From contig OX597831.1 of the NCBI GenBank assembly GCA_951406725.2, positions 70,618,001 to 70,682,000 on the forward strand: a stretch of 64,000 nt of DNA, read 5' to 3'. Numbering within the stretch: position 1 is the stretch's first letter; each line of letters begins with the position of its first letter. The stretch is from Octopus vulgaris. Taxonomy: Eukaryota. The notes below the pieces were generated by a model, which had not been told where the DNA came from, searched no databases, and saw only the letters and a program-made list of their open reading frames with translations. Positions 3,138 through 58,290 of the stretch are shown here, piece after piece. The position numbers and the translations under genes are program-made.

Positions 3138-3447
3138 ATATTTATATATACCAATTAAGGACTGAACACGAAAAGTGGACAGTCAACATGCTAGATATAG
3201 ACGTCAAATCGTCATTCTCCACAAAAGATTATGTTCTCAGATCAAACTCAACACAAAAGTTTGATCTGAGAACATAATCTTTTGTGGAGAATGACGATTT
3301 GACGTCTATATCTAGCATGTTGACTGTCCACTTTTCGTGTTCAGTCCTTAATTGGTATATATAAATATTTTAATCTTCGGATTCTTTTTTAATATGCTAG
3401 ACCACTGGTCTTAATTGATAAATATCAATTTCTACCCTTAATTAATT
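3138..3447 (+). repeat. Perfect fold-back (111-bp arms, 9-nt loop) plus unpaired tail between (TA)n tracts; probable Penelope-type truncated insertion
   Basis: 3138-3248 is the exact reverse complement of 3258-3368. A tail at 3369-3447 follows, then (TA)n. Confidence 0.85.
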
Positions 3448-4405
3448 ATATATATATATATTTATATATGTATGGATGGATAGATGTGTGTATGTATGTA
3501 TGTATATATGTGTGTGCATGCATGTGTGTGTGTGTGGTGTGCTTGTGTCATCTAGTTTTGACATTGTACTGTAGCTGTAAACAAGTGTTACCACCATACA
3601 AGTGGTGTTTCCAACCTCACATGACAATGTGTCTGGGCATGGGTAAATATTTTTTTTCTACGAAACAGGCGAGGGACTGCAACAGGAAGGGTGACTTTGT
3701 TGATTTGTTTCTCATCTGTGATGTTTCGTTTTGGTAATTCTTCAGTGAAGCTGTGCCATTATTTCCAGTCATATCGTTTGTGGTAGATTCCTGCAAAGAG
3801 GATTCATGTTTGAGATGGACATCCTTACAGTTTTGATGAAATGTGGCATTAATGTTGGAAAGGTATTCATCAGATATTAAATGAATTGTCTCCTAACTAG
3901 ATAAATGACTGTCCTCAACTAGTAGTTTCTTGATGTGTTTGTTTGCATATTTGTTGTATGTATACATGTATGTATGTATGTCAGGTCACTTTCAAGTGCT
4001 ACTGGTAACATGTAACCCAGTACAACATGTTGCATGGTCGGGTCGTCGGCGACTAAACCGGCAATCCCACCAAGCTAGCTTGGTGAGGAAGGTGTTTATT
4101 GGACACCCTGCGGGATGAAAAACAAAACCCATCAAAGGGCGGAGGAACTCTTGAGAGTCAACGGCCATCCAATAAATGTCTTAAGGCTGTATCATGCACG
4201 GGGACATAGAAATAATTGGACCGAATACCCGATCGCGTGGTTAAACCATTGGGAGTGAAGAACTCCTAGCCTTTGTTAGGGCATCCTTCTAGGAGAAGGT
4301 AACTCAGGTAACTGGGATAACTCTAACATACTATTGTGACCACATGATCAAAGTTGGAGCCTGTTTGAATCATTTTTCTTTCTGGCTTTCTTTCTCAGTG
4401 TAAGC

Positions 4406-5310
4406 ATGGCCAATCCATTAGCAATGTGCACTAACGAAGAACAAAGAGCAGTGACCCAATTTCTCTGGTTGGAAGGTGTGTCTGGACGTCCGTCAATCTC
4501 CACCACTGATGAGAAGATTCAGCAAGCTTGAGAGATGGTAATGGTGAACCGGCAAGTTACCATCAGTGAGGTAGCTCATTCTCTGATATGCAGTCATGGT
4601 TCTGTTTATCAAGTTATCCACGATGAGCTCAGCCGCCATAAAGGCTGTGCAAGATGGATGGCAAGAGAGCTTGCTGCAGAGCAAAAGAGCAAACATCTTG
4701 AGGTCTGCCAATGTTTACTCGATCACTACAACAATGAGGGCAAGAAATGTTTTGCAGAATGGTCACTAGAGATGAGACATGGGTCCATCGTTATGAGGTA
4801 GAATGCAAAAGATAGAGTATGGAGTAGAAACATCCTGGTTTGCCAGCGATGAAGAATTTCAAAACTCAGTCTTCCACAGAAAATGTGATGCTAACCCTGG
4901 AAAAGCAGTGTACGATCAAGAGTGCAAGATACAGTGCTTTGTTGACCAACAAACTGAAACCAGCAATTCACACCAAATGCCAAAGCCTTTTGCTGAAGAA
5001 AGCTCTGTTGTTGCATGACAATGCACATCCACACAGGGCTACCAGACTGTTGAAACCATTAACCAATTGGATTTTGAGGTGCTGGAACTGCCTGCATAAG
5101 GCCCAGATCTTGCACCTTCCAGCTATTATATCTTTGGACCACTCAAAGATGGTTTAGAAGGTCGTTGGTGTCCGACGGATGAAGGTGTGAAGAAAGTGGT
5201 GCATAAAAGGTTGCATGACCAACCAAAGACCCTTTTATTGGAGGGAATATACAAGCTTGTGGACCCCTGGACCAAGTGCCTCGAAAAGGAAGGAGACTAA
5301 TTAGAAAAAC
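4406..5310 (+). pseudogene. Decayed mariner transposase
   Basis: Fragments MANPLAMCTNEEQRAVTQFLW, ARWMAREL, LLLHDNAHPH, PDLAPSSY, KCLEKEGD with frameshifts and stops. A probable right end lies near 5797 after a SINE insertion. Confidence 0.8.
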
Positions 5311-5343
5311 AATGTACTTATTTATCCCCTGCTTTTGTGTAAC

Positions 5344-5752
5344 TACTCTTTTACTCTTTTACTTGTTTCAGTCATTTGACTGCGGCCATGCTGGAGCACC
5401 GCCTTTAATCGAGCAACTCGACCCAGGCACTTTTTCTTTTGTAAGCCCAGTACTTATTCTGTCGGTCTCTTTTGCCGAACCGCTAAGTGACGGGGACGTA
5501 AACACACCAGCATCGGTTGTCAAGCAATGCTAGGGGGACAAACACAGACACACAAACACACACACGCATATATATATATATACATATATACGACAGGCTT
5601 CTTTCAGTTTCCGTCTACCAAATCCACTCACAAGGCTTTGGTTGGCCCGAGGCTATAGTAGAAGACACTTGCCCAAGATGCCACGCAGTTGGACTGAACC
5701 CGGAACCATGTGTTGGTAAACAAACTACTTACCACACAGCCACTCCTGCGCC
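5344..5752 (-). mobile_element. SINE family A, full length
   Basis: Reverse complement of 62511-62924. Head GGCGCAGGAGTGGCTGTGTGG is A-box like. Confidence 0.85.
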
Positions 5753-6083
5753 TACATTGAAAAACCAAGGGTGCATACATTTTTTGATTATCTCTCATAT
5801 ATATGTGTATACCATGTGTTTACATAACCATCTCAAATACTGATCTTCGTTAATTAGATTGTAAATAGTTAATTAGATTGTACGAATCAGTCTGCTCAGT
5901 TTTTGTCTTGAGTGCTTATCCCAGTATTTCCATATTTTTGTTGCGTTTTTTTTTTGTTATTTGTTTATGCTGATCCGTTATGTAGCCCAGCAGACCTATA
6001 ACAATAAGGGGAAATGAAAATCTATAGCCAAGATAAATGATCAGTAGATTTCTCATGAGTTCTTCGTAGATGTCCTTCTTTAC

Positions 6084-6173
6084 CTTAACTGACGATATTC
6101 TTGTCTGCCAGGCAGACTAATCTCTACAGTAGTACATGATTTTTGTTCACTGACCCATGCAACAATAACTGGC
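6084..6173 (-). CDS. Candidate host coding exon 3 (R)PVIVAWVSEQKSCTTVEISLPGRQEYRQL(R); product unknown
   Basis: ACAG acceptor, AG|GTAAAG donor, 90 nt open, phase 2-2. It is non-repetitive and in frame with the exon at 36464-36530. Confidence 0.55.
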
Positions 6174-6404
6174 CTGTTATACATACACACTATTACTGTT
6201 TTTATTGTATACATAAGCATACATACATAAATACACTCACATATACATACACAAATATATACACACACACACATATGCATACATGTACACACATGCACAC
6301 ACACATGAGAGGGTGTACAAACATACAAACATAAAAACGCATTATTTATGGGATGATCCAATATCTGCATATATATATATATATATATATATATGCATGT
6401 GTGT

Positions 6405-6456
<52 letters not shown>

Positions 6457-6495
6457 GTATGTAGGTATGTATGTATGTGTGTATGTATGTCTGAT

Positions 6496-6528
<33 letters not shown>

Positions 6529-6805
6529 GTGTATGTCTGTATGTATGTATGTATTATATATGTATTATGTATGTATGTATGTATGTATTTTATTACTATC
6601 TCTCATATATATGTGTATTCCATGTGTTTACAAAACCATCTCAAATACTGAAATAGTTGGTGTGGATCTATGTGTCTGCATGTGAATAAACTTACACCCA
6701 TAGTGGATCTGCATGTAATGCTTGTACGCAAGTATGTGTGTCTGTCATTAATAATAGCAATAATAATAATAATAAAATATATACATACAATATAAGATAT
6801 GTACT

Positions 6806-6837
<32 letters not shown>

Positions 6838-7043
6838 GAGACAAAGGCACAACATGAGCACCTACATCGTTAGAAATAGAAGTCAAAAATACTTCAGTAC
6901 CACAGAATAATCACAAATTTACTACAAGCATGGTAGGAAAAAATTCCAGTGAACATTAAAACAGTCTTACCTCTGCAAGCAATACTGGTCAACTTGGTAC
7001 TTCTATTCTTAGCACTGTAGGTGCTCATGTACTGCCTTCGTGC

Positions 7044-7080
<37 letters not shown>

Positions 7081-7085
<5 letters not shown>

Positions 7086-7214
7086 AAGTCAAAATAGAAA
7101 ATACTAAAATAATTTTATAAAGAACCTGAAATGTTCTTTATAAAATTATTTTAGCATTTTCTATTTTGACTTGTTTTTTCATATATATCAACTCGTGTGT
7201 TCCTTTTCACCCTT

Positions 7215-7216
<2 letters not shown>
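7081..7216 (+). repeat. (TA)n-flanked fold-back with about 45-bp arms plus tail
   Basis: AAAAGTCAAAATAGAAAATACTAAAATAATTTTATAAAGAAC is mirrored by GTTCTTTATAAAATTATTTTAGCATTTTCTATTTTGACTT. Confidence 0.75.
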
Positions 7217-7261
<45 letters not shown>

Positions 7262-7462
7262 ATTTATGATACAGATGAGGAAATAATTTTATTCTCAAAC
7301 ACAGGCTAATGCTAATAATATAGCATGAACGGGATAAACTACGTTTATGAATAAAATTATTTCTGTATCTGTATTTTTCTATACATCTCAAAGCTTCCAA
7401 AGCAAACTTTATTTGTTGATTTTCAACATAAGTTGAATTTTATATATGTGTATATATATATA

Positions 7463-7658
7463 TCATCAGCAGCAGCAGCATCGTTTAACGCCCGCTTTCC
7501 ATGCTAGCATGGGTTGGACGATTTGACTGAAGTCTGGTGAAACAGATGGCTGCACCAGGCTCCCCAGTCTGATCTGGCAGAGTTTCTATGGCTGGATGAC
7601 CTTCCTAGCGCCAACCATTCTGAGAGTGTAGTGGGTGCTTTTACGTGCCACCAGCATG
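7463..7658 (-). mobile_element. RTE-type LINE 3' UTR remnant
   Basis: CATCGTTTAACG..TTTCCATGCTAGCATGGGTTGGACG signature shared with the other copies. Confidence 0.7.
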
Positions 7659-11414: not shown

Positions 11415-12706
11415 CGAGGGGCGTTCAATAAGTAATGCCCCTGACCCACTTCCCATAGAAGTAGAGCAACGAAACGTGGCACAGTTATTAGTCTTTTTCT
11501 ACGTAGGAACCACCCAGAGTTACGCATTTCTCCCATCGTTTGATGCAGCTCTGGAGACCGTTTTTGTAGAAGACCCCAGCTTGGTCCTCCAACCACGACG
11601 GGACTTCAGAAATCAAGGCTGCATCATCTGGGAAACGCTTTCCTTTCAAAAACAACTTCATGGCTGGGAAGAGGTGAGAATCAGAGGGTGCAAGGTCCGG
11701 AGAGTAGGGGGGATGGGGGAGGAGTTCATAGCCGCACGCCTGTGCTTCTGATCTGGTGACACGCGAGTTGTGGACCGGAACGTTGTCCTGCAGGAGGAAG
11801 ATGCCTTTGCTGATCTTGCCCCGCCTCTTGATTTTGATAGCTACTCTTAATTTCCTCAAAAGTGAAGCATAATAGGCTCCTGTAATTATGGTACCTTTTG
11901 CCAGGAAATCTGTCATCACTACTCCGTCCTGGTCCCAGAAGACTGTGAGCATGACCTTGCCAGCGGAGGGTTGCACCCTTGCCTTCTTTGGAGGCGGTGA
12001 GTCATGGTGCTTCCACTGCATTGACTGGGCTTTGGTCTCTGGATCATCGTGATGGACCCAGGTTTCATTCTGTGTAATCAGACTTTTGAAAAAATTTGAC
12101 TCATTTTCTTGGCACATCTCCAAATTCATCCTCAAGCACTCGACGCGTTCTTGCTTCTGAAAAGGTGTGAGCAACCTGGGAATCCATCTGGCAGACACCT
12201 TTTGCATATGCAAATGGACATGAATGACAGTTTCCACAGACCTGGTACTAATCTTGACTCATGGGCTATTTGGCGAATAGTTATGTGTCGATCTTCCAAA
12301 ATGGCAGCCTCAACTTGACAGACAGATACCTCATCAATGGCAGAAGGGGGGCGACCAGATCTGGGAGCTGTTTCCACAGAGTTCCGACCATGTTTGAATT
12401 CACGATGCCAGCGTTTTACAAGGTCATATGATGGGGCATCATCACCATAAGTTACTTTCATTTCATCAAAAGTCTCCCGTGGTGTGCGTCCTTTCAAATA
12501 CAAAAACCGGATCACTGCTCGACACTCAACAGGCTCCATTTCACACTTGACTCGGTTCAAACACCTGTAAATCAGAAACCACAATTAGTTCAGGGCTGTA
12601 ATTTATCACTTAATCTGTAGAGATATAAATAATTGCACATGCAAAATTTCAGCTGGATCAAACAACTGCAAGTGGGTCAGGGGCATTACTTATTGAACGT
12701 CCCTCG
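11415..12706 (-). mobile_element. Full-length mariner element (1292 bp) with 37-bp TIRs and TA target duplication
   Basis: TIRs at 11415-11451 and 12670-12706 differ at one base. TA flanks both sides and the insertion sits in a CA/TACA microsatellite. Confidence 0.95.
11488..12539 (-). pseudogene. Mariner DD34D transposase with one frameshift (about 12255) and first catalytic D changed to N
   Basis: MEPVECRAVIRFLYLKG HTH region, WIPRLL, ITQNETWVHH, LQDN-x34-D and YSPDLAPSD motifs, split over ORFs 12132..12584 and 11488..12237. Confidence 0.9.
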
Positions 12707-14319: not shown

Positions 14320-15186
14320 CAGTGACCTTTGAACTGCATTTTCATCTTGGGGAAGAGGTGGAAGTCCATGGGGTATAAATCTGGGGAATAGAGTGGGTGT
14401 GGAAGTGATATCATGTTGTTTTTGGAGAGAAACTCACAAGAGAGGAGAACTTGGTGACAGGGTGCATCGTCATTATGAAGGATCCAATTCTTCACCCTCC
14501 ACAGATCCAGTCACTTCTGCCAAATGTCCTCCTTCAAAATGCTGCAGTAGAACTTTCAATTGATGGTCTGGCCTTGAAGGACGAATTTTCGATGCATAAT
14601 ACCACAGATGTCGAAAAAAACGATGAATGAGCTGCAGCTCTGTTGTGCCTTCTTTGGTTGGGGAGATGACAACTGCTGCTTCACCTCAGGGTCGTACCCG
14701 TGGACCCAACTCTCATCACCAGTGATGATCCTTGACATGAAGGGTGGGTCATCAGCGGCACACTGATGGAAATCTTGACAGACTTCAATGCGATGTTCTT
14801 TCTGCTCAGTGGTAAGCAGGTAGGGGGCAAACTTGGCAAAGATATGTCGGATATTCACCTTGTGCCCATGCCACTCAAAACATTCTGTACGATCCATTGC
14901 CTTGTTGTCATAAGCTTGCCAAAACATGCTCAATGTCTCTGTAGCAGACTTCCAAAGTTTAAGGTAAAACTTCATGTTCGCTCTTTGTTTCAGCTTCCTG
15001 TCCATGACAAAATCGCATACAAGTGAGCACAAAACGCAAATTTCACAACTTGTGAAGTAAATACAGTGGTGTCAGTCAGCACATTGCCTCATGAAAGTCA
15101 CTGTTAGCTCTCACTGTGCACATATCTGTGCTGCCATCTGTTGGCATGCTCCAGAACTTGTCCAGGAACTTTCTGATCCCACCTCG
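14320..15186 (-). mobile_element. Decayed mariner element (third family), one TIR retained
   Basis: KQRANMKFYLKL, IITGDESWVHGYDPE, WILHNDDAPCH and YSPDLYPMDFHLFPKMK. The end reads TA-CGAGGTGGGATCAGAAAGTT on minus. Confidence 0.85.
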
Positions 15187-20183: not shown

Positions 20184-20655
20184 TAGAGAGACCGTGAGAG
20201 AGAGAGAGAGAGAGAGACCGAGAGAGAGAGAGAGAGAGGGTAAGCAACTGTAATTGGTATTCCACGACTTAGAGAAAACCTTCAAAAGATTCCTTCACTC
20301 TTTGGCCTGGAGGTCAAAGCAGAAGCTAAGAATAGATGAATGGTCTGTGAAAGTTTTACAAGCTATACAAAGAGTTGTTGTCATTAAAGTGAGAGTTAGC
20401 AAAGAGTACAGCAATGAATTTAGACTAAATCTAGGAGTTTACGAAGACTCAGTTCTCAATCCTCTCCCAGTCATCATATTCCTCCTGACTGAAAAAGAGG
20501 AGAGTAAGCAGAAAAACAGACAAGACACTACTCCTTTCAGTAACATGGATCTACTCAATAAGAAGAAGAGGTGTGTAGATGGATACTAGTTACTTGGTGC
20601 AAACGATGTCCACACAAGATGTGCAGTGGAATCATAGGAAGATTAACCGAGAAAG

Positions 20656-21234
20656 ATAAACCACTTCCACCTCAGGTGTCTTTGGAACCTCCTTCACATC
20701 TGCTGGCAGGACAAAGTCCCAGACACGGAAGTTCTGAAGCAGGCAGATCTCCCTAGCACCATCACGATCATGCGCAAGGCCCAGCTGAGATGGGCAGGCC
20801 ACGTCTCCCGCATGTCCGACACTCGCATCCCAAAACAGCTCTTCTACGGTGAACTCAGCCAGGGCAAATGCAAAGTCGGAGAGCAGAAGAAGCGCTTCAA
20901 GGACAGTCTCAAAGTCTCTCTCAAAGACTTCTCCATCGGCACAGAGACTTGGGAGACACTTGCTGCCGACTGCTCATCCTGGCGCATCGCAATCACCACA
21001 GGAGCAAAGACAGCCGAGGGGAGACGGATTCAGTCAGCAGAACAGAAACGCCAGATGCGGAAAGCCAGAGCCACCTGCACTAATAGCACAGCCCCTACCC
21101 ACTTCTGCCCCACTTGTGGTAGCGGCTTTTTTGCCCGGATTGGCCTCACCAGCCACCTCCGGTCTCATAGCAGCAATTCCACCAAATGATGTCAATGGTC
21201 ATCTTCGAACCCGAAGGACGAACATTATTATTAC
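20656..21234 (+). mobile_element. 5'-truncated RTE LINE with C-terminal C2H2-like finger, 11-bp TSD
   Basis: ORF 20770..21189 has LRWAGHVSRM..RIPKQLFYGEL..CPTCG..IGLTSHLRSH. TSD AACCGAGAAAG at 20645-20655 and 21235-21245. Confidence 0.9.
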
Positions 21235-24077: not shown

Positions 24078-24590
24078 CTAGCAGTATCACCCGGCGTTGC
24101 TTGGCTTTGTAAGGGAAATAACTATATAAGCATTTTTAGAGATTTACTTCCCTTATAGATGCCAATTCGGGCTTTCTTAACCATTTCTGTTTTGGTGTCT
24201 TCAAGCCATGAAGTCGTTGTTCTAAAAGAACGCTGGTCTCCTTGACAACGCTTTACGACGTTGATTTCCTTACACTCCCTTCCCCACAGCTTCACGAGGG
24301 AGGGAATAAGGGGAAGAAGCAAACAGGTGCAGGTGTGACCATGGACGCCAACTCTGCCGCCATCGACACACGAAAAATTATGCATTAAAATGGAATAAAA
24401 AATGATGTTAAATTATTTTTAAAATCGTAGACTCATCGTAGACGCGCGCTAATATTCAGACAGGCTCGATATGAATCACGACTATAAGATACCCAAATTT
24501 AGTTAAACTGCATCGCAAAATGTGGGAGTAGTTAGGAATCTAAATCGAAGGGGACAGACACTCACACAACTACAGTTTTATATATATAGA
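24078..24590 (-). mobile_element. Non-autonomous Helitron-like element
   Basis: Minus strand starts TCTATATATATAAAA and ends with a GC-rich hairpin (GCAACGCCGGG) plus CTAG. It is inserted between A and T with no TSD. Confidence 0.7.
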
Positions 24591-24671
24591 TATATATATA
24601 TATATGTACCGATGTAAGTATGTACATACACGTATGTATATATGCATATATATATATGTATATAGATATAT

Positions 24672-24930
24672 ATATATTAATGGGGAAGGTCGATTTATGG
24701 GATTGCTGTGACTTTCCCATCCATAAAGAGTTTAGCTTTATGACATATCATTAGACCCCAAAACCTGCTGGCTCACAGGTTTTGGGGTCTGACGATATGC
24801 TATTAAGCTAAACCCATTATGGATGGGAAACCCATGGCAATCTCATAAACCTGCCTTCCCCATTAATATATAATCTGCTCTACATCTTAGAGTGTGCTTC
24901 TTCTCAGGATTTATGTTTTATACAAACGAT
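24672..24930 (+). repeat. (TA)n-flanked imperfect fold-back with about 96-bp arms plus tail
   Basis: 24672-24767 pairs with 24776-24871, with an 8-nt loop. Confidence 0.8.
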
Positions 24931-24940
24931 ATATATATAT

Positions 24941-25479
24941 TAGAAATATTGAATTTCTAAATGTCTCAGAGAGACATAAGCGGTGGTGGAACGATATAGT
25001 GGTCATATACTGTCAACTCAATGTGACAGTCCCATAAGGGAATTATACCACCACCATTTAGCCCTAGGAAACATCAATGTCTCCTGTCGGCTTTGACACA
25101 TTTTCTCTGCCCTTATATTTGCAAAGGGGAGGCAATCACCCCCGCAAGCCGGGACAAGGCACCTGAAGACATATGTTTCTGAGTGTATTGCTCATCGTCA
25201 GTTCAGGGTAGCCAGTCTCGCTCGCTGAGATGACTGCAACCTCTCTGTAAATATATCATATTATCAGTAAAATTTAGTTACTGATCACCGAAATTAGAAA
25301 TATAAGAAGACAGAATATAAGAACAAATATAAAGCAAATATAAGGACACAAAAAATAAGGTAAATATAAGGACACAGAAAATGTGTCAAAGCCGACAGGA
25401 GACGTTGATGTTTCCTAGGGCTATATAGCGGTGGTGTAATTCCCTTACGGGACTGTCACATTGAGTTGACTGTATATAC

Positions 25480-25485
<6 letters not shown>
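24941..25485 (-). mobile_element. Penelope-like truncated insertion with inverted arm and hammerhead
   Basis: About 24995-25120 is inverted at about 25360-25485. It has (TA)n flanks and an internal HHR motif. Confidence 0.75.
25162..25207 (-). ncRNA. Minimal type I hammerhead ribozyme, intact core
   Basis: ccugaa CUGACGA ugag-caauaca-cuca GAAAC auau GUC^ uucagg. Stems I and II pair fully and stem III is palindromic. Confidence 0.85.
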
Positions 25486-25518
<33 letters not shown>

Positions 25519-26488
25519 CATACATACACTAGTTTCAAGAATTTGTCAGTAAACATTATCTGTCCATGAACGCACAGACTTACTAATGAAGACACCAAGG
25601 TCAACTTTGCTTTTCATCCTTTCAGATCGATAAATTAAGTACCAATTGCATACTGGGGTCGATCTAATCGACTGGTCCCCTCTCCCAAAAATTTCGGTCC
25701 TTGTGCCTAGAGTAGAAAATATATATATATATAAATTTAAGTGTATTTTGTATTCTTTGTGAGTGTGTGTGTGTGTGTATACACACATACACTTTCAGCT
25801 TCCTTTCATGTGTGTGTGTGTAAATAGTGCAATATATAGATTCATAAAATCCTATGGTAACTGAAATTATTACATGCTTATGGTTGTGAAAAGACTGGCA
25901 TCCTACGGATATCAAGAGGTTAAATAAATATATTCACCTCTTATATCTCCTGACTTATGATCTCTCTCTCTCTCACTCTCTCTCTCTCTGTATATATGTA
26001 TATATATACATTCCAATGTACATTATCAATCAAAAGTCTATAGTACACAGAAGATATCTATTTTTTTTTTTAGTTTTTCTAAAACAATATTTTTGTTGAA
26101 ATTAAACAATTTGTTGTATTCAAGCTTTTTAAAAATCGATGTAATTCCTCTATCCATAGACAAAATATAGTAATAAATTCTAGCATGATTATCTTGAACA
26201 TTCTTTAAATCCTTCACATACCATTAGCAAGCTTTTCTGACTGTAAGAACTCCAAATTGCTCGTATTCTTCCTGAATTGCTGTAATTAAAGATAACTTGG
26301 TTTAAAAAATTTCTTGAAATTCAGCTCTGATTTAATGATCGATCATAAATATTTAGTAGGTTCATGTCTGGAGTCTGTCCATGTGAATGAAATTATCAAT
26401 TTCATGATTTTCAAGAAATTATTTCTCTTACTCAGCAGAATGAACAGGAGTATTATCCTGTTGTTATATGGCCTGTCTGGAAGGTTTG

Positions 26489-32753: not shown

Positions 32754-33141
32754 CCCTTTCGTTACTGTATTTATTTTGAAATGCTCTGTATTTCTTTCGA
32801 TTACTTTAAATATAACAAAGAATTTAGTAAAATAACTTGGTTATCATTCAGCTAGTGTTAGGAACATAAATTGTGACTAAGGTTTGGTGGAAGATTTTAA
32901 TTCAAAACTTATGAAAATAAGACATTTATACTCAGAGCCAGAGGCGGTTTCAGCCAGGTTGGTATCAAAAGGGTTAAATATAACAAAGAATTTAGTAAAA
33001 TAACTTAGTTATCATTCAGTTAGTGTCAGGAACATAAATTGTGACTAAGTTTTGGTGGAAGATTTTAATTCAAAACTTATGAAAATAAGACATTTGTACT
33101 CAGAGCCAAAGCTGGTTTCAGTCAGGTTGGTAACAAAAGGG
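32754..33141. mobile_element. piggyBac-type MITE (220 bp) with 168-bp partial tandem duplication, inserted in a SINE A copy
   Basis: TTAA-CCCTTT...AAAGGG-TTAA at 32750-32977. The segment from the internal TTAA (32806) is repeated to 33141. Confidence 0.8.
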
Positions 33142-35123: not shown

Positions 35124-35969
35124 GTGATGAATAAATTGTCATCTAAATTATGCAAAAATGAAAATAAAACTGACGTCTCATTTTAAAATATATATTTACC
35201 AAAATTTCATTAAAATATCCTGAAATACTAGATAGTAAATTTATTCAATAAAATCACCACAACCACCAAACAACTTTGGAATAATCTGCAACTCTTCTGG
35301 ACAATCTCCTTGTTTAAGTTTGTGAATGCTGCCATAATCCTTGCCTTCAGTTCATCTTTGGTGTTACAAGGAGTTTTGTTGGTCTCTTGCTCAACTGTGC
35401 CTCACACATAATAATCCATGGGTTTGCAGTCTGGGGAGTTAGGTAGTCAGATGCCATTACAGAAATTGTCTGACAACCATCACTGGGTTCTCCTGCTTAT
35501 GTAGCATGGTGCAGAGTCTTGTTGCCAGGCGTAAGGTCTTCCAGCAGCCAACCTCTTGACCCAGGGCAGCACTACCTCCTCTAGACATGTGATGTTGACC
35601 TCTCTGTTGATTCTGAGATGGTGTAGGAAGATGAATGGAGGTATAAAGTCATCATCACTAGTGATCACTCCAAACACCATGATGTTGACTGGATGTTTGA
35701 TTTTTATCACTCTCAATACATGTTCATATTGGTACATGTTTGTATTGAAACTTCCAACGCTTTGTAATGGAGCTTCTGGAATGAATGCCAAGCAGTACAG
35801 CATGTCGTTTCCAAATTTCTGGGTGAGTGAATTGCATCATGGTGCTGTTTTTCTCACAGACAGTGCCCAACTGGCCTTACTATACTGTGTAGTCGACAAA
35901 ATCAAAAACCAAACAATATGCATGTGTGAAATTAGAAATATAAAATGGTGACAATTTATCCATTGCACC

Positions 35970-36530: not shown

Positions 36531-37719
36531 CTGGTAATAAATAAAAGCAAGATTTCTTTTTACAGTTTTTCTCAAATGTGAATGACATAATATGTAATAG
36601 CTCTTAATATATTAGATTTTAAAATCCATTGACTACAAAACCAACCACAGGACTAAAATCATGTATCAGCTAGAATACATATGGTCGTGATACTATTACA
36701 CTGAAGTAACTCTCTGACTTCCAACCCCTGAAATCACAGACTGCAATCTTGCAAACAAGAAAAGGCATTGTTTTACATTTAAAAGATAATTTTAGATGCA
36801 TTGGCATATATTACAGAGAAATGAATGCATACATATGCACACGCACAACATCATCATCATCATCATCATCATTTAACGTCTGTTTTCCGTGCTGGCATGA
36901 GTTGGATGGTTTGACAGGTGCTGGCTAGGCAGAAGGCTGCATTAGGCTTCACTGTTTGTTTTGGTGGGGTTTTTACAGCTGGATCCCCTTTCTAACACCA
37001 ACCACTTTACAGTGTGGACTGGATGCACCAGCATTAGTGGGGTCACCAAGTAACTTGTAAGATAAAGATCCTTTGAAAGGGGGATGGGGAGGAGGCATTG
37101 AAGGAGTTAGTCTTGTGTCAGCTGATGAGAGGTTAGAGCGTGGCAGAGAGAAAGAAACAAGTGTCTTGCTGTTGAGGAGACACGTGGTTATCCAGTCAGA
37201 GGGAGAGAGCAAGAGAAAGATGGAGAGAGTGAGTGAGTGATCAAGAATGTGGGAGAGAAAGCGAGTGAGAGTGCAAGGGAGAGCAGAAGTGAGATGGTTG
37301 TGAAGTGCTAGGGCATGCACTTACAGTACAGTGATCAGAATATAGATGGGATGGTAGAGTATTGCCCAGGGAGTAGGGACTTCACATGAATCAAAGAAGA
37401 GTGTGGGAGAGGGGAAAGCACTGACTGGTGACATGTGGGTAAATATACATATAATTTTGTATACATACACACACACACACACATACACACACACACACAC
37501 ACATACACACACACATATATATATATATATGTATGTATATATATAATGTATGTATAGAACGTATACAAGGAGTTTTCAACTGAAATTTTGTGTTATGAGT
37601 GTTCAGTCTGGTTTACCACTAAAACTCCAGCTTGAACTGCAACTGAAAAAGTAGTGTTGAGACTGCCTAGGGAAAGCGGCAAGAAGTGGTATATATGGAT
37701 GTGTGTGTCTCATTAGGCT

Positions 37720-38445
37720 ATTCCTGCTTGACATGTTAGGAAGAGCCTTTCCTGGTGTATATTTTGCTATTTATAGGGACGATACTTGAACTTTAGCTAA
37801 GAATAACAATGGACCAATGCAAGATCAGTTAAGGAAAGGTATTATCCATCTTATGAAAACATTCGATCTTAACATAACAATACATCAATTTCCTTGATGT
37901 ATCTCAAGATTTACAAAAGAATATTTACAAACCCTAGAGAAAGCCCAACGATAGACTTAGTTATATTAATGTAGGTTCCTGCCACCCCATTATAGTGTTT
38001 AAAAATTTAGTTTAGAATATTAGTAGGAGAATCTCTAGCCTCTCCTCCAACATAAACGTATATTATAATACTGCCCCACTATATAACAATGCCCTTAAAG
38101 CTGGTGGATTTAAAGAGGAAACGGATTACAAACCTACTATTAAACCAGAAATAAAGAAAAGGAAACAGGCACAGGAAAACTATCTGGTTCACACTCCCTT
38201 ACTCACTCAAAGTGACCTTTAATATAGGTAAATATTTCTTGTCACTTATAGATTAGACATTTTCCAATACATTTCTCTTTTTTTCTTTTTTATCTATTAA
38301 ATTAACTTCCCTTTTATTCAACGGTTTTTTCATAGTATCTGTTGCCATTAATAGCCAACAAGAATGTATCGCAGCTCTTAGTTCCAAGATTCGAAACCCT
38401 GAGTACTATAATGACAAACTTTTTCTGTTTGTTCTAAATTATAAC
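37720..38445 (+). mobile_element. Penelope-like element remnant: RT C-terminal half, deleted endonuclease, 3' terminal repeat abutting (TA)n
   Basis: IYRDD, INFLDVS..YKP*RKPND..YINVGSCHP..ISRRISSLSSN..YNNALKAGGF..RKTIWF.LPYS..NIGKYFL are characteristic of Penelope RT and linker. Confidence 0.85.
38351..38409 (+). ncRNA. Degenerate hammerhead remnant in Penelope 3' region
   Basis: auag CCAACAA gaau...auuc GAAAC ccuga GUA cuau. Stems are intact but the CUGANGA box is decayed, consistent with CpG loss from CCGACGA. Confidence 0.5.
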
Positions 38446-38456
38446 CTATATATATG

Positions 38457-42001: not shown

Positions 42002-42813
42002 CAGGGGTGGTGAATGGATTGTCTAAATTATGCAAAAATGAAAATAACACTGACATCTCATTTTAAAATATATATTTATAAAAATTACTTTAAAATATCT
42101 TGAAATACTAAAGAGTAAATTTGTTCAATAAAATCACCATTGGCCTCCAGATGACTTCAGAATTTCCTGCAACTCTTCTGGACAATCTCCTTGTTTAAGT
42201 TTGTGAATGCTGCCATAATCCTTACCTTCAGTCCATCTTTGATGTTACAAGGAATTTTGCTGGTCTCTTGCTCAACTGTGCCTCACACATAATAACCAAG
42301 GGGTTGCAGTGTGGGGAGTCAGATGGCCAGATGTTAGGGGTGGTGTGGCTGCAGAAATTGTCTGACAGCCATGACTGGATTCTCCTGCTTGTGTGGCATG
42401 GTGCAGGATCCTGTTGCCAAACATAGGGTCTTCCATCAGCCACCCTCTTGACCAAGGGCAGTACTACCTCCTCCAGGCACTTGATGGAGGCTTCCGTGTT
42501 GAGTCTGAGACTGTGCTGAAAGACAAATGGAAGCATAATGTCACCATCACTAGTGATCACTCCAAACACCATGATGTTGACTGGATGTTTGATTTTTATC
42601 ACTCTTGGTACATGTTTGTAGCAGATCTTCTGGCGCTTTGTATTGGAACTTCCAGCATGAATGCCAAGCAGTACAGCATGTCGTTTCCAAATTTCTGGCA
42701 GAGTGGCACAGTGCCCAACTGACCCTACTATACTGTATAGTCGACAAAATCAAAAACAAACAATGCACGAAATTAGAAATATAAAATGGTGACAATTTAC
42801 CCATCGTCCCCTG
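42002..42813 (-). mobile_element. Internally deleted DD37D (maT-like) element
   Basis: ORF 42228..42602 has WQQD followed by 37 residues to the NPL(D) position. TIR-like ends are present. Confidence 0.8.
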
Positions 42814-46197: not shown

Positions 46198-46267
<70 letters not shown>

Positions 46268-46270
<3 letters not shown>

Positions 46271-46510
46271 AATATTAGGGAATAAATCCAAATTTACAGG
46301 GAAAAAATCAGATTTAGGATTAAATCCAATTTTATAGTAAAATATTATATAATATTAATTCGAGACAAAACCACTATTTTGCAAAACAAACAAGGAAAGA
46401 CTTAATCAATACATAAAATTTTAATATAAAGTTAATAAATTATATTAAAATTTTATGTATTGATTAAGTCTTTCCTTGTTTGTTTTGCAAAATAGTGGTT
46501 TTGTCTCGAA

Positions 46511-46523
<13 letters not shown>
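46268..46523 (-). mobile_element. Short fold-back copy (perfect 84-bp arms) of the element at 47370-48873
   Basis: 46346-46429 pairs with 46440-46523. The tail at 46268-46345 is homologous to 47370-47460. Confidence 0.85.
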
Positions 46524-46556
<33 letters not shown>

Positions 46557-46712
46557 ATATATATATGTATATATATGTGTATATATATATGTATATGAAT
46601 ATATATGTGTATATATATATACATATGTGTGTGCATGTATCTATAGCCACCTATATTATAATGCATCTAATATATCATAATATATTAATTTACTACACTA
46701 TCTCATTGTATT

Positions 46713-46784
<72 letters not shown>

Positions 46785-46787
<3 letters not shown>

Positions 46788-47070
46788 GGTATGCATAGCT
46801 TAATGGTTATGGTGTTGCACTCATGATTGCATGATTGCGATTCCAATTCCTAGCCCAGGCGGGGCAAAGCACTTCATCTCACATCGCTCTGTGATCACGT
46901 CAACTCCTGAAGCATGGCACACAGTGCACCTGTTCAGACAATGTCGATTTGATGGAGAGAGTGTACTGAGGTACAGCATGAACATTTGATTCCTATAGAC
47001 AAATTAACTGTGCAGGTTGTTTGACAAAAGCTGAATGCTCATTCGTCATCTTCAATGGAAGAGTACATCA
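46785..47070 (+). mobile_element. Diverged tRNA-derived SINE
   Basis: A-box-like TAGCTTAATGG, B-box-like GATTCCAATTCC and GGGCAAAGCACTTCATCTC core. Confidence 0.55.
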
Positions 47071-47561
47071 TATATATATATATGCTCACACACATACACA
47101 TATATGCATGTATATATATGATTGATTCTAGTTTCAGCTCATGAGCTGTGGCCATGCTGGGGCACCGCCATTTATATATATATAATATCAAAATAAGCAA
47201 CAAGAATAACTCTGGTAAATTGTTGTTTATTCTTGTTCCTTATTTTGATTATAATCACCCCACGGATTCATATAGATAACACCATACAGAATTCTGGTGC
47301 ATCTAACTTAAGTACCATATTCATTTGAATCTAAATTTTACTGAACTTATATATATATATATATATATAATAATAAATATTAGGGAATAAATACAAATTT
47401 ACAGGGAAAAATCAGATTTAGGATTGAATCCAAATTTATAGTAAAATATTATATTATATTAAATTAGAGACAAAACCACTATTATGCAAATCAAACAAAG
47501 AAAGACTTAAGCCAATACATAAAATAATTTATATAAATTTAGAAATTTAACAATTATAAAT

Positions 47562-47622
47562 AACCACTACGATCGTTTCATGTCTTATTTCAGCACATCT
47601 TTGAGACATTCTTCAGGTGGTT
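47562..47622 (-). ncRNA. Type I hammerhead ribozyme, intact core
   Basis: aaccac CUGAAGA augucu-loop-agacau GAAAC gauc GUA^ gugguu. Confidence 0.85.
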
Positions 47623-48708
47623 TCAAAACCTAAAATATAATCACGCGCAAAGAATTTATCAAAAATTTATTCTATTTTTTGCTTATAACGTAATTCTATG
47701 AGTTTCTCTTAAACACTGTTTGTGATTCAAATTAGTTCATAGTTTAAAACTCGCCAAGAAGGTACGTATCTTTTAAGATCTCCAAATGTTAATTTTCAAT
47801 ATTGTATAAGCCTTAGGAGTAATAATATTCTCTTTATGTTAATATGCTGTTTATGTAATGATCTATTTATCGTAATTTTCTATGTTATTAGTTATTAAAT
47901 AATTTAGATAAACTTTGATAAATTAGATAGGTTTCGACTTAAGATGGTTTAGGCCATGTCTAATATAATAGCATAATTTATATTAGATAATATTCCCATT
48001 CATAATTTTGTTTATAGTACTTATAGTATTTTTTAATACTATATTACTAAGTATGGAATATTCCTATAAGTATGTGGCTGAGTATCTGTGGCTACTGGAT
48101 GTTGTTTCTCCTCTGTGTTAGTGTCTTGCAGTGTGCATACGTTAATGATTGAGTGATTGTATGTGTGTGTGTGCGAGTATGCATAATTCATGTGTAGAAA
48201 TATAGGGCTGCATTATAAAATATCCGTGTCTATATGTATTTGTGTATGTATAGATATATATATGTGTGTGTGTTTGTTTACGTATTTATATATGTTTATT
48301 ACATACATATAGTATATAGTATTTATTTAATACTATTTTACTAAGAATAAATATTTCTATAAGTATGTGGTTGAGTATCTGCGGTTACTGGATATTATTT
48401 CTCCTCTGTGTTAGTGTATTGCTGAGAGTATATGTTTATGAATGAGTGATTGTATGTGTGTGTGTGCGAGTATGCATAAGTAAGGTGTAGAAGTATAGTG
48501 CTGCATTATAATATCTATATAAGTAGATATAGACTAAAATGGATATTAGAATATGGATTTCTACCTTATAAATTAAAGTTAATATTTAACATTATAGTCG
48601 ATTTCGATATAATCATATTTAATAATAGAGTTTATTGTAAGTAAATTTTTTATTTAGATTATATAGATTATTTATATCTTAAATATATTGATTATTTTTA
48701 GGTTTTGA

Positions 48709-48769
48709 AACCACGTGAAGAATGTCTCAAAGATGTGCTGAAATAAGACATGAAACGATCGTAGTGGTT
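48709..48769 (+). ncRNA. Hammerhead copy with C3-to-G core substitution (likely inactive)
   Basis: Identical to 47562-47622 except GUGAAGA. Confidence 0.7.
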
Positions 48770-48867
48770 ATTTATAATTGTTAAATTTCTAAATAATTTA
48801 TATAAATTATTTTAGGTATTGGCTTAAGTCTTTCTTTGTTTGATTTGCATAATAGTGGTTTTTTCTC

Positions 48868-48918
<51 letters not shown>

Positions 48919-49204
48919 GTATATATAGATGGTTGTGAATTGTAAAACATAACTGACACCACTACCACATCAACCTGAAGATTGCATACTTTAATGCATG
49001 AAAGTACTAGTTCAATCAGAATGGATCATTTAATATACTATCATTTTATTATATTATCTTATATTAACTTACATTATATTATTATAAGATTGTAAATAAA
49101 ACATAAAAATCAAAGTTGGAATTTCTTTGAGTAATATATATATATGATAGATCGCTAGGCACTAAACCTTTTTCTATTTTCTCTCCTTGTTTATTTCTAT
49201 GTTC

Positions 49205-49240
49205 CTTTCTGTCAAAGAGTTTAGGCTCAAAACGTTAAAG
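49205..49240 (+). ncRNA. Degenerate minimal hammerhead in a (TA)n-flanked insert
   Basis: cuuu CUGUCAA agag-uuuagg-cuc AAAACGUU aaag. Same layout as 58121-58155 with core mutations. Confidence 0.45.
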
Positions 49241-49330
49241 ACTTTCTCACTTCCTGACCATTAAACTAATACATCTGTTTGTTGTTTAAACACCCGTCTT
49301 CGTCTTTTGTTTTTTTTTGTAAATTCCCAC

Positions 49331-49360
<30 letters not shown>

Positions 49361-49361: not shown

Positions 49362-50228
49362 TTGTTGGCAATTATTTTTGTCTCGGAAGACAATGATGTT
49401 GCGCATAAAATAATCTAGTCCGGCTTTTACATTTCATGTCCTAATACATCTCCTGCTGTGGCTGTGTAGTCCTATCCTGGACAAACACTCCCTCTGGCAG
49501 GTGCCGCAAATATAGCAAAGACTTTGCCTGGCTGGTTGTAATGTCATAGTTTCTTGTTGACATCTTTTCTTGTCTTTCCATTTCTCCTCTCTCCCTCTGT
49601 CATTCCTTTGTATTCCCTCTTTTACGGTATGTTGCCAATCTCCACAGTTGCTGGCAACTTCTTCCCAGTTGCTAATATTGATGTTGCAGGCCTTCATGTC
49701 CCTTTTGCAAACATCTTTGTATCGTAAGAATGGTTTTCCTACAGACCTGGTGCCCCTAGCAAGCTCCCCATAGAGTATGTCCTTGGGGATTCTGCCATCT
49801 TCCATACGGCTAACATGTCCAAGCCATCTCATACGTCTTTGTGTGAGGAGTGCAAACATGCTTGGTATTCCTGCTTGCTTGAGGACATCTTTGTTGAGGA
49901 CATGATTCTGCCATTTGATGCCAAGGATTTTCCGGAGGCAGCGTGTGTATGGCGTCCAAGTCTCACTTCCATACAGTAGAGTGCTAAGTACACATGCCTG
50001 GTAAATCTTCATTTTTGTGGTCTTAGTCAGCTTATTATTGTGCCATGCGAAGACCAAAATCAGAAGCGTCCTGATCAAGGAGATGTTATTTGCTGATGCT
50101 GCTGCTCTGGTATCAAACACAGAAGAAGCCCTGCAAAGGCTCATCAACTGTTTTGAGCTAGCGTGTTGTGACTTTGGCTTAGTTATTAGCCTCAAGAAGA
50201 CCAACATCATGGGCCAGGTTACATCGGA
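49361..50228 (-). mobile_element. RTE LINE insertion with 5' inversion
   Basis: Minus 50045-49434 reads IYQACVLSTLLYGSETW..RWLGHVSRMEDGRIPK..CGTC..IGLHSH. Plus 50044-50228 reads MLFADAAALV..FGLVISLKKTNIM, which is the upstream RT part inverted. Confidence 0.9.
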
Positions 50229-50357
50229 CATATATATATATTGTTATATATTGTTATATTTAAGGATGAGCTTTTATTTCTTTTGCCTTTTCACCACATA
50301 CACTATATACCTGTTCTTCAGTTCAGCTTTATTATTTTTCCTATTTTAGCGTCGTTT

Positions 50358-50400
50358 GTCTGAAATGTTTCATCACACATCCTGTGACCTCTTCAGCAAC
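50358..50400 (-). ncRNA. Hammerhead-like motif with weak stem I
   Basis: guug CUGAAGA g gucaca-ggaug-ugugau GAAACAUUUC agac, inside a (TA)-flanked insert at about 50240-50425. Confidence 0.45.
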
Positions 50401-50509
50401 TCTCCATTCCACATGTCTCCTCCAGTATATAGATATATGCATGTATATGTAATCATACTGTGAGATTTAGATTCAGATTGCATAAAAAAAACAGTATCTA
50501 AAACTCTAT

Positions 50510-55619: not shown

Positions 55620-56090
55620 TCTTGCAAATAACTTGCACATGCAAGTGCTACCAGTCAATAACTCTGTATACCGGAAGCCAGCAAGTGTATGGGGTCATCA
55701 GGAGAGAATGCGCGCCGTTTCGGGGCCTACCTCTCGACGGCATCAATGCGCACCGGCCGCCCCTCACTGATATGAGTCCCCGCTTGCTAGATCAGCTGGT
55801 TATCAAATAAAGCTCAATATCCTTCTAGCCATCGCTCATCGTCTCTTTTTAACCAAATCCAGTGGCTAGCCTTCTCCACTGTAGATTGGATATCGGTCAT
55901 GGTGGTATTGACTTTACGATGAGTTAGGCCTAGCGATAACAACAGTCGTCTCACACTGTGTCCAACGAACCCTCTACATCCGACTTCGATTGGAAAATGT
56001 TCTGCTTTCCAGCCTGCATCTTCACATTCCTCGGGGAGGTTTACATAACGGTTAAATTTTCGAGCCCAAACGGCGTCCATATTATCTTCA
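55620..56090 (-). mobile_element. 5'-truncated RLE-type (HERO/NeSL-like) non-LTR retrotransposon: ORF end and GC-rich 3' UTR
   Basis: ARKFNRYVNL.EECEDAGWKAEHFPIEVGCRGFVG...EKASHWIWLKR* is open to the stop at 55814. Confidence 0.8.
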
Positions 56091-56646
56091 TGTTTGTATG
56101 TATATGAGTGTGTGTTTTTGCATGTGTGTGTCTGCATGCTTAATTGATAGTGGATCCAGATTACCATGAACATTTCTTTGTAATTATTCTTTAATTATGA
56201 AATAAAGTAATATTTTGCTTGTTTTAGATATTTTGTAATTACTTCTCTTTCTTATGCTTTTCTTTTAACCTCTTCAAGTAGATAAACACTCAAAACTGCA
56301 TATTGCCCTTACTCTTTCAATTTATCCCCCTCTCATCCTTTTATTTCCTTCTCTTCTTCTTTCTTTTCTGTCCTTACTTCTTTGTTTTCTCTCAGATCAT
56401 TGAGATTTCCTTTGAACTTAATCTGGACATACGTATCTCAGATGATTTATGATACTCTGTGCTAGATACACAGGTTGAATGCAGTTCTATATTTAAGAGA
56501 CTAGGAATTATGTACATTATTTACATTTGATGGATATTTGTACTCATCTTGTTTGTTATTAACACAATATTCCAACTGATATACCCTTTAATTTATTCAT
56601 ATAGGTGATGATGAAATGACAACAGCTTTCCATTATATAATGAATC

Positions 56647-57087
56647 TCTATATATATATAATGGCGGTGCCCCAGCATGGACACAGCTTGTGAGCTGAAA
56701 CTAAATAAAATTTAAAAAATAATAATATAAACGGCAAAATGTCTGTCTGTGTGTGTGTGTGTCCTTTATAGAAATCCACAATTTTTCAGTTAGAGGGTTC
56801 GCACTTTCTATGGTCATTTAAAACCGTCCAAGGGTGGTCGTGCACATCTTTAAATTTCCCCAGTCACCCAAAAAAGCCATTAAAAAATCATTAGAAGTGA
56901 CTTTTTTGTGAAATTTCTATCCAAAACCCAATCAAAATGCCCGAAACTTGATACGCCAATTGAATGCCAGCTAGCTGTATGTGATTGGTTGGAGATTTGG
57001 ACAGTACTCGCGTGTATGTGTGCACGCACGCGGCTGTATATGCATGCACTAGCACTATGACTCAGTGTTGCCGGGTCATAGTGTTAG
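56647..57087 (+). mobile_element. Non-autonomous Helitron-like element
   Basis: TC(TA)n start, GTCTGTCTGTGTG tract, 3' hairpin and (C/T)TAG-T end. A short SINE-tail piece is inserted near the 5' end. Confidence 0.55.
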
Positions 57088-57447
57088 TACTCCATAATCA
57101 ATGCTATATAATCATTCAAAATGTTGAAACAGTTGTAACCAAGGAATAAATACACTATACCGATACCTTCATTCTTTGCTTGTTATATATTTATGTATGA
57201 ATGAATTGGTGGATGGATGACTGGATGGATGCATTGAGGAAAGTTTAGTACCTAACAGAAGATAGTTTACTCCTAAACAGGTATTTTTTGGTCTGAGGGT
57301 TTCCGCTCAAGATGAAATTACTAGTCATACTGGCATTGAATTTTCAACAGCTGAAATAAAATAGTTAGATTGAGTGAATCAACTGGAACACTCATCATTG
57401 TAACTGACAGAGAGCGAGATAGATATATACACATATATATATACTTA

Positions 57448-57740
57448 CGCTCGAGCGAGGTCATTGCCAGTGCCGCTGGACTGGCTCTTGAGCAGGTGGC
57501 ATGTAAAAAACCCCATTTGAGCATGGCCGTTGGTAGTACCACCTGACTGGCCCTCGTGCGGGTGGCATGTAAAAGCACCCACTACCCTCTCAGAGTGGTT
57601 CACATTAGGAAGGTCATCCAGCTGTAGAAACTCTGCCAGATCAGATTGGAGCCTGGTGCAGCCATCTGGTTCACCAGTCTTCAGTAAAATCGTCTAACCC
57701 ATGCTAGCATGGAAAGCAGATGTTAAACGATGAAGATGAG
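57448..57740 (+). mobile_element. RTE-type LINE 3' UTR remnant
   Basis: Homology to 54480-54917. Confidence 0.7.
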
Positions 57741-57979
57741 GATATAGCATACACACATACACACACACACACGTGTTTTCATCCTTGTCTTGACATGGCA
57801 TAAGGGCTGTAGACAAGCATCACCATCCCTGTCTTCTGTGCAAAACATGTTGGGCCATGCTTGGGAAAAGGTGATGGTAGTTTACAGAAAGGGCAACCAG
57901 CCTTAGAAAATCTGCTTCAATGAATTCTATCTGACGTATACAAGCATGGAAAAGTGGACATTAAATTGATGATGAGGGC

Positions 57980-58023
<44 letters not shown>

Positions 58024-58120
58024 ATCCAAACCTGAAATCACAAAGAGAAAACACAACAACGCGAGGACGTGGAAGAAGTATAGTATTATTGGACGCTCAG
58101 GAAAGAAGAAATGAAGGAGG

Positions 58121-58155
58121 GTTTAACGTTTCAAGCTGAGCTCTTCGTCAGAAAC
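58121..58155 (-). ncRNA. Minimal type I hammerhead ribozyme (loopless palindromic stem III)
   Basis: guuu CUGACGA a gagc-uca-gcuu GAAAC GUU^ aaac, within an insert of about 200 bp (58020-58222) adjoining (TA)n. Confidence 0.7.
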
Positions 58156-58290
58156 ATAGGAAAAGGAAAAATCCAAAGAAGGGAAGATGGAGGAAAAAAA
58201 TTCACCAGCGGTACACATGCAGTCACACACACACGCACACACACACACACACGCATATATATATATATATAGATATATATATATATAGAT

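Follow-up and report, generated by a model that had tools for sequence, protein, structure and literature searches.

Inverted-arm insertions at (TA)n repeats of Octopus vulgaris as truncated ends of Penelope-like elements and their likely passengers, with likely priming at two fixed sites

It has been described that endonuclease-bearing (EN+) Penelope-like elements (PLEs) insert as partial tandems with an inverted 5'-truncated copy at the 5' end, a one-sided tail of 30-40 nt, a preference for (TA)n and a hammerhead ribozyme in the pseudo-long terminal repeat (pLTR) (PMC8557442, PMC3846280; the PMC-numbered sources are cited here and below for their accessible parts). In earlier papers the tail is explained by resolution through the endonuclease, and self-priming is held responsible for the inversion (PMC8557442, PMC3846280). 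Non-autonomous head-to-tail derivatives of Penelope are also known, for example Chlamys elements such as MRC1 (PMC8557442). In vitro, the anole Poseidon protein PAc cuts and extends both strands and begins cDNA synthesis at two neighbouring internal positions, which delimit the tail; the protein is predicted to act as a dimer (PMC11167929). Mobilization of animal retrozymes by PLEs has been proposed from co-occurrence and pLTR similarity (PMC7229834 and the accessible part of 10.64898/2026.07.22.740005; the word "tail" is absent from the latter). The repeat annotation of Octopus vulgaris contains 30 recently active Penelope families and, in its accessible part, uses neither "retrozyme" nor "ribozyme" (PMC13282606). 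Here we describe insertions of this kind in a 64,000-nt stretch of the O. vulgaris genome (C18:70618001-70682000, the window), whose families were followed through the 2.8-Gb assembly of 227 contigs.

The initial annotation of the window had pointed to eight inserts with one layout: (TA)n, an inverted arm, a direct arm and an unpaired tail. This layout was present at all eight (Table 1). The inserts represent seven families (F1 to F4, 7081, 7262 and 47187), because the inserts at 46268 and 47370 are both F1. They had been regarded as a separate system of mini-elements, a view that had to be abandoned, as most of them appear to be 5'-truncated ends of elements of at least 2.6 kb and three families are tandem units. 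We consider it quite probable that the inserts are truncated 3' ends of PLEs, together with units free of open reading frames (ORFs) that were likely mobilized by them, and that the two-armed inserts were twin-primed on the same RNA at two fixed sites.

A first look at the genome yielded 1352 candidates for F2, 1225 for 7081, 278-1710 for 7262, 1703 for F3, 2234 for F4, 1386 for F1 and 2202 for 47187; these figures are candidate counts and not copy numbers. Contigs from independent sequencing runs break at (TA)n around 3138, for which reason they showed no allele free of the insert, and the termini of the 3138 family (F2) reappear in them as TA loose ends (inner terminus in 3 of 4 runs, outer terminus in 3 of 4), therefore they are no assembly artefact. 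These observations bear out the claim that the arms are multi-copy. The palindromic appearance and the TA flanks would also suit assembly artefacts, or miniature inverted-repeat transposable elements (MITEs) derived from DNA transposons that duplicate TA at the target. The fixed-length, symmetric terminal inverted repeats of class II elements were not found, since in all families the tail is asymmetric and the arms are variable. Taken together with the hammerheads, the linkage to reverse transcriptase (RT)/GIY-YIG frames (see below) and the recurrence of the same termini in independent runs, this leaves such an origin hardly credible.

Each family ends at one of two sites, outer and inner. The offset between them is 63 nt in the autonomous family identified through the RT remnant of the window (see below), 76 nt in F1, 78 nt in F2, 53 nt in F4, 57-65 nt in F3, 98-102 nt in 47187, 27 nt in 7081 and about 65-76 nt in 7262. 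The earlier suggestion that the inverted arm has a fixed start marking a priming site thus found support in two fixed termini per family, which match the start sites of the anole protein as described in the accessible part of PMC11167929. As with PAc, two adjacent start sites lie downstream of the hammerhead and delimit the tail, both strands would be cut and extended, and the target is AT-rich. In the accessible part of that paper, however, the start site shows no homology to the target, and no link is drawn between the two sites and inverted arms, whereas here the start sites often hold short TA runs (a weak feature) and the arms pair outer with inner. The inner-site runs are 3-8 nt long and rank in the top 5-53% of positions; as support, target homology at the start sites was set aside as weak and partly circular. 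Hairpin z-scores of the tails ranged from -3.3 to +0.7, and no fold common to the tails was seen.

TA-rich sequence follows the family end in 64 of 71 F1 copies, 41 of 42 copies of 7081, 42 of 50 copies of 47187 and 39 of 54 F3 copies, against a background of 12-14%; the count for F2 was not used because it was inflated by internal unit junctions. TA was present on both sides of 21 of the 23 head-to-head autonomous copies, and the bias was weaker in the head-to-head copies of F4 (5/13) and 7262 (8/27). Family termini and TA counts agree with the Penelope-like origin and the (TA)n preference of many families that had been proposed for the window. Some F4 copies (L087, L070) lie outside (TA)n, with apparent target duplications of about 7-10 nt.

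The two sites are not combined at random in head-to-head copies. Among 234 resolved clusters in seven families, 122 were head-to-head pairs, of which 100 joined outer to inner, one inner to inner and none outer to outer, and 21 had an unresolved end (the segmental-duplicate pairs L277/L278 and L079/L089 are counted twice in the tallies). The DNA queries contained the tail and would therefore favour outer-outer pairs rather than hide them. The autonomous family, which is unbiased for ends because it was found with a protein query, had the outer-inner arrangement in 20 of 21 resolved pairs. F1, whose reference held microsatellites, was left outside the 122 and counted separately: an inner-site arm accompanied 28 of 38 outer-site copies, an outer-site arm none. 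Five additional Neptune-type pairs comprised four outer-inner and one outer-outer combination.

A palindrome with a tail could also arise by snap-back: after priming at the outer site, a single cDNA would turn back, serve as its own template and, at the inner site, switch to the target via TA-like microhomology; self-priming on an antisense template has been proposed for head-to-head copies in rotifers (PMC3846280). Identity of the arms would be automatic, and the perfect 111-nt arms at 3138, the palindromic junction at unit position 31 in L265, the 3-8 nt TA runs frequently held by inner sites and the near-symmetric junctions in many short stubs all suit this route. Snap-back cannot, however, produce a tail-less arm extending further upstream than its tail-bearing partner, nor can it account for junctions that are separated by hundreds of nucleotides. 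In the autonomous family none of 20 junctions was symmetric (within 20 nt), and the tail-less arm reached further in seven. In the long F1 copy of the window (47370-48890) a tail-bearing arm of 274 nt, with the hammerhead at 47616, is joined to a tail-less inverted arm of 1250 nt that consists of non-coding 3' sequence. The inner site is, moreover, used also by single-arm copies (4/11 in the autonomous family, 2/13 in F2, 9/19 in 7262). As a general explanation snap-back is therefore unlikely, although short symmetric stubs may have formed in this way. The term fold-back, applied to the inserts in the initial annotation, is mostly a misnomer: the two arms are indeed inverted, but they are truncated independently, and the tail-less arm is often the longer one.

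Twin priming on the same RNA is further suggested by the identity of the two arms. Diagnostic mismatches within an insertion, compared with those between insertions, numbered 0/373 versus 6386/32944 (19%) in the autonomous family, 7/196 versus 3550/15009 in F1, 1/35 versus 481/1857 in 7081 and 8/83 versus 2859/7181 in 47187. Two independent primings on different RNAs would require that the arms were made alike afterwards by gene conversion of adjacent inverted repeats, or that one source locus dominated in the germ cell. Such a history would account for the 45 of 33,711 aligned sites at which the arms still differ and for the little excess of arm sharing in old families. To produce 0/373 mismatches over spans of up to 2.5 kb in a family that is about 99.5% identical, and 1/35 in the Neptune-type family, conversion would have to be nearly instantaneous and complete, and we regard this explanation as quite improbable.

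Twin priming is the simplest model that we can derive from the sequences. The endonuclease would cut both strands of (TA)n, and one 3'-OH would prime at the outer and the other at the inner site, probably with the help of a protein dimer. Both cDNAs would be extended until they stall, would pair via a few bases or a palindrome, and would then be filled in. The tail would be the stretch between the two start sites, and priming from only one end would give a single-arm copy with or without tail. Overlaps of at least 2 nt (2-5 nt) were found at 8 of 18 junctions, compared with 18% in simulations; three junctions were blurred by single-nucleotide polymorphisms and three contained small insertions. 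In twin priming of L1 elements a single RNA is primed from both ends of the target, each cDNA copies a different part of it, and the two are joined by microhomology. The likeness consists in the priming of both ends on one RNA and in joining by microhomology, but here the cDNAs would overlap, start at fixed sites less than 100 nt apart and yield a palindrome.

Several observations weigh against twin priming as proposed above. The pairing rule has exceptions, an inner-inner pair at L257 and the outer-outer pair at L355. In short stubs near-symmetric junctions (≤20 nt) are frequent (11/15 in 7081, 11/16 in F3, 7/14 in 47187 and 5/10 in F2); these fit snap-back too, and the queries favoured such copies. 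A looser first count in the autonomous family gave 4/217 mismatches within and 2441/9034 between insertions. Sharing of arm haplotypes is weak in the old families (0.27 versus 0.37 in F3, 0.26 versus 0.31 in 7262 and 0.21 versus 0.39 in F4), and in F2 the test rests on a single site and is uninformative. Shared arm variants would be seen with one RNA molecule as well as with two transcripts of a single source locus, and they do not exclude gene conversion. Finally, no partner protein was identified for the ORF-less families.

The linkage to PLE frames encoding RT and GIY-YIG that the initial annotation had anticipated was seen in four families, which appear from their sequences to be 3' ends of ORF-bearing PLEs, three of Hydra type (F1, F3 and 47187) and one of Neptune type (7081). 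The RT remnant reported at 37720 is real and ends in (TA)n at 38446, but no inverted arm was present at the locus. Used as a lead, it identified a young autonomous family (127 scored matches, most of them equal in score) with more than 100 near-identical copies, about 99.5% identical, several of which have open frames of 717 aa. The unit is 2589 nt long and contains pLTRs, a variant hammerhead and a single ORF with a putative RT followed by a C-terminal GIY-YIG domain. Searches of Pfam and PDB with the 717-aa frame gave no match, and GIY-YIG in a relative stayed below the Pfam cut-off (E 0.0011), so the domain calls are based on motif reading. The frame has all listed motifs of the Hydra clade, i.e. 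RWK, DKG changed to DKT, a CxCX5C linker, no CCHH, and CxxC and CxH around conserved E and N; the linker, CxxC and CxH are seen also in the frame upstream of F1. The family has, in addition, the pLTR hammerhead, the (TA)n insertion and the size below 3 kb of this clade. By motifs and architecture the autonomous family, its relatives upstream of F1, F3 and 47187, and the remnant at 37720 would thus belong to the Hydra clade. Hydra-1_Obim of Octopus bimaculoides, a member of the clade, is listed without pLTR in the accessible part of PMC8557442. RWK, DKT, the CxCX5C linker, CxxC, CxH, a size below 3 kb and (TA)n are common to both, whereas the present family differs, by description only, in its clear pLTRs, its U4-to-C hammerhead, and its youth, with more than 100 copies that are nearly identical.

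The Hydra-type endonuclease frame of F1 was found upstream in one longer copy (L261). Between this frame and the hammerhead lie about 2.5 kb of non-coding 3' sequence (L261:6523-9516), in which microsatellites and an internally duplicated stretch of about 210 nt occur; with this sequence the element would exceed 3 kb. Copies of F3, an older family (about 85% identity), at L270 and L271 and of 47187 at L269 and L273 lead up- or downstream into more distant Hydra-type frames; longer 47187 copies have a hammerhead with a long stem II and RT/endonuclease frames. The 47187 frame at L273:3860-5596 (minus strand) holds long Asn-rich inserts, as described for rotifer Penelope elements (PMC3846280). 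Longer 7081 copies lead upstream into Neptune-type RT and GIY-YIG frames. A CX2-5CxxC linker before GIY-YIG (read in L288 and L355), an RVT_1 match (E 5.8e-8) and a tail of 27-35 nt would place this family in the Neptune clade. For the families of 58121, 49205 and 50358 no ORF link was found.

Hammerheads were sought with a custom scan in place of Rfam, which returned no hammerhead among the matches listed for the window (150 of 339) or among those listed for the F2 and F4 units. The strict scan found three intact motifs in the window (25201, 47616 and 58151) and none in any of 30 shuffles; a relaxed scan found four, compared with a mean of 0.4 in 20 shuffles. The hammerheads reported for the window were therefore confirmed in part: the motifs at 24789 (F3) and in the window copy at 49205 are decayed, that at 50358 keeps core and stem II with a non-canonical 3' part, and 7262 has none. 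Most intact hammerheads have a short helix III and are not of the minimal type I form that had been assumed, which is seen at 58151. Most short stubs have no ribozyme because they are cut downstream of it, and longer family members have it: it is intact in 32/49 copies of F1, 47/50 spanning copies of F2, 14/22 copies of 7081, 7/26 of 47187 and 25/58 of 58121. The F4 copy of the window has a canonical type I hammerhead at 25201 (helix I 6, helix II 4, helix III palindromic), the autonomous family a U4-to-C variant with a helix I of 6 bp and a helix II of 4 bp, and the 49205 family a CUGU-N-GA core variant, with the full pattern in 12 of 35 spanning copies. A G3-C8 core, a swap used as a laboratory rescue mutant of the hammerhead, is kept in 6 of 10 other distinct copies of the 59758-59962 family. 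The hammerhead of the 7081 family is of the U3-A8 kind, a variant described in PMC4209133. In the five family references that passed the scan, the hammerhead cut lies 90-249 nt upstream of the outer site, and neither terminus coincides with it.

Three families consist of ORF-less tandem units. F2 units (505 nt, 33% GC, copies 99-100% identical) form head-to-tail arrays of up to about 6.5 units, and F4 units (354-355 nt, 45% GC) are likewise arranged head-to-tail. Only two PLE protein matches were seen in 66 F2 and F4 loci, none of them continuous with the unit. Judged from these features, GC below 50% and one type I hammerhead each, F2 and F4 appear retrozyme-like. They resemble metazoan retrozymes in having no ORF, a low GC content, a head-to-tail arrangement and a single type I hammerhead per unit; unlike those, the present units carry the two-site ends and inverted arms of PLEs, and F2 exceeds the 150-450 bp range of retrozymes. 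The 306-nt unit of 7262 departs further from retrozymes, with a tRNA-like part and no hammerhead. The tRNA-Thr(CGT)-like part lies inside a predicted long stem; ARAGORN called tRNA-Thr(cgt) at a relaxed threshold, and the Rfam tRNA match (26.4 bits, E 0.0016) was below the gathering score of 29. In the majority sequence there was no GAAA on the sense strand and no hammerhead core on the other, and Rfam, the sole check, gave no other ribozyme class. A tRNA-related region (A and B box) is shared with tRNA-derived short interspersed elements (SINEs). A classic SINE of this kind was nevertheless rejected, as the tRNA part is internal and the copies are tandem, variably truncated, often inverted and have two fixed ends. 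PLE frames were near 5 of 56 loci of 7262, and the two that were inspected belong to neighbouring insertions. The units of F2, F4 and 7262 likely ride on PLEs.

F2 arrays of up to about 6.5 units and autonomous copies of more than two units continue across the hammerhead cut. Copies of such length imply a circular or multimeric template instead of a ribozyme-cut linear monomer, and the data fit either form. Among the sequencing runs that contain F2 or F4, none is recorded as RNA. A 535-nt contig, the length expected of a closed 505-nt cycle, was present in two runs (one guessed to be RNA); it would be expected of a circle and of a tandem array alike and was not counted. It is tempting, although we propose it only tentatively and with more doubt than confidence, to view Penelope-like retrotransposition as bipolar, with a dimeric enzyme that starts cDNA synthesis from each end of a cut, on one RNA molecule (probably a circle) and at two fixed sites, which by themselves would suffice for passengers. 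The 306-nt unit might then be a SINE-like element mobilized by Penelope, whose unit-length RNA would be released by tRNA processing in place of the hammerhead.

Table 1. Penelope-related features in the window
Feature	Position	Strand	Description
F2 insert	3138..3446	+	Stub of a tandem hammerhead unit (505 nt, ORF-less, young), ribozyme upstream of the portion present; inverted arm 3138-3258, ends at inner site; direct arm 3258-3446; tail 78 nt
7081 family insert	7070..7215	+	Neptune-type pLTR stub; inverted arm 7070-7125; direct arm 7126-7215; tail 27 nt, ~35 nt counting the shared TA run
7262 family insert	7268..7443	+	Inverted arm 7268-7341; direct arm 7343-7443; tail ~68 nt
F3 insert	24671..24929	+	Hydra-type pLTR stub; inverted arm 24671-24772; direct arm 24775-24929; tail ~58 nt
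F4 insert	24941..25487	-	One full 354-nt ORF-less unit; inverted arm 25362-25487; direct arm 24941-25294; tail 53 nt (24941-24993)
RT remnant and family 3' end	37697..38446	+	Broken, internally deleted, Hydra-type (37697-38253, 58-79% identity to Hydra-type protein); decayed hammerhead-like motif; then (TA)n
F1 short stub	46265..46528	-	Direct arm 46265-46442, tail 76 nt; inverted arm 46437-46528
47187 family insert	47182..47350	+	Hydra-type pLTR stub; inverted arm 47182-47222; direct arm 47227-47350; tail ~98 nt
F1 long copy	47370..48890	-	Direct arm 47370-47643, tail 76 nt; inverted arm 47641-48890
49205 family stub	49151..49331	+	Single arm between (TA)n runs
50358 family stub	50239..50430	-	Single arm, old family
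58121 family stub	58020..58227	-	Single arm; intact minimal hammerhead at 58151
Further family, unlisted in the initial annotation	59758..59962	+	Single-arm stub; G3-C8-core hammerhead at 59778

Insertions of different families are nested in common (TA)n runs at 7047-7463, 24579-25526 and 46200-48920. The runs lengthen around the nested inserts, and the repeat seems to serve as a common landing pad. The single-arm stub at 59758-59962 belongs to a family with two-site ends, of which other copies are paired head-to-head and have a tail of about 60 nt. The 49205 family is a very common stub, both in the window and in the flanks of many loci. In the 58121 family (L211-L240) many copies start near one 5' point beside (TA)n; only about 3 of 60 end at a second site, unlike the Hydra-type families, and inverted arms are rare. 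The window also contains what we take to be decayed Tc1/mariner-like transposase frames (4400-5310, 11488-12584, 14556-15071, 35480-35951 and 42228-42749) and, presumably, 3' fragments of RTE-like long interspersed elements (20647-21189 and 49434-50243). A 228-nt element at 61622-61849 has symmetric terminal inverted repeats and provides a plain MITE-like contrast to the asymmetric inserts; tandem pairs of 168 and 184 nt at 32806 and 27194 are related to it.

The layout itself is known. Partial tandems, the inverted truncated copy, the one-sided tail, (TA)n and the hammerhead are all shared with EN+ PLE units, so the fixed tail, the inverted copy and the TA bias singled out in the initial annotation are real but already published (PMC8557442, PMC3846280, PMC11167929). 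The present work adds longer tails, mechanistic statistics and one odd passenger family (7262). The tails measure 53-100 nt in the Hydra-type and tandem families (27-35 nt in the Neptune-type), compared with 30-40 nt in EN+ PLE units, and the accessible parts of the papers on those units neither formulate a rule for the pairing of ends nor test whether the arms are truncated independently or share haplotypes. In the literature searched, which was covered mostly by listings and did not include older subscription papers on Penelope structure and octopus SINEs, we met neither the pairing rule nor the identity of the arms, and no PLE passenger that bears a tRNA part and lacks a ribozyme.

How Penelope insertions with an inverted copy and a tail are formed is called an open question in the literature, as far as its text was accessible. 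From the pairing rule, the independent truncation and the identity of the arms, precise predictions follow for the in vitro assay that already exists, and the young, intact Hydra-type family with its defined (TA)n target is a ready test system. In annotation, stubs of this kind can easily be mistaken for MITEs or SINEs. That ORF-less hammerhead units bear the same footprint gives junction-level support to the mobilization of animal retrozymes by Penelope elements.

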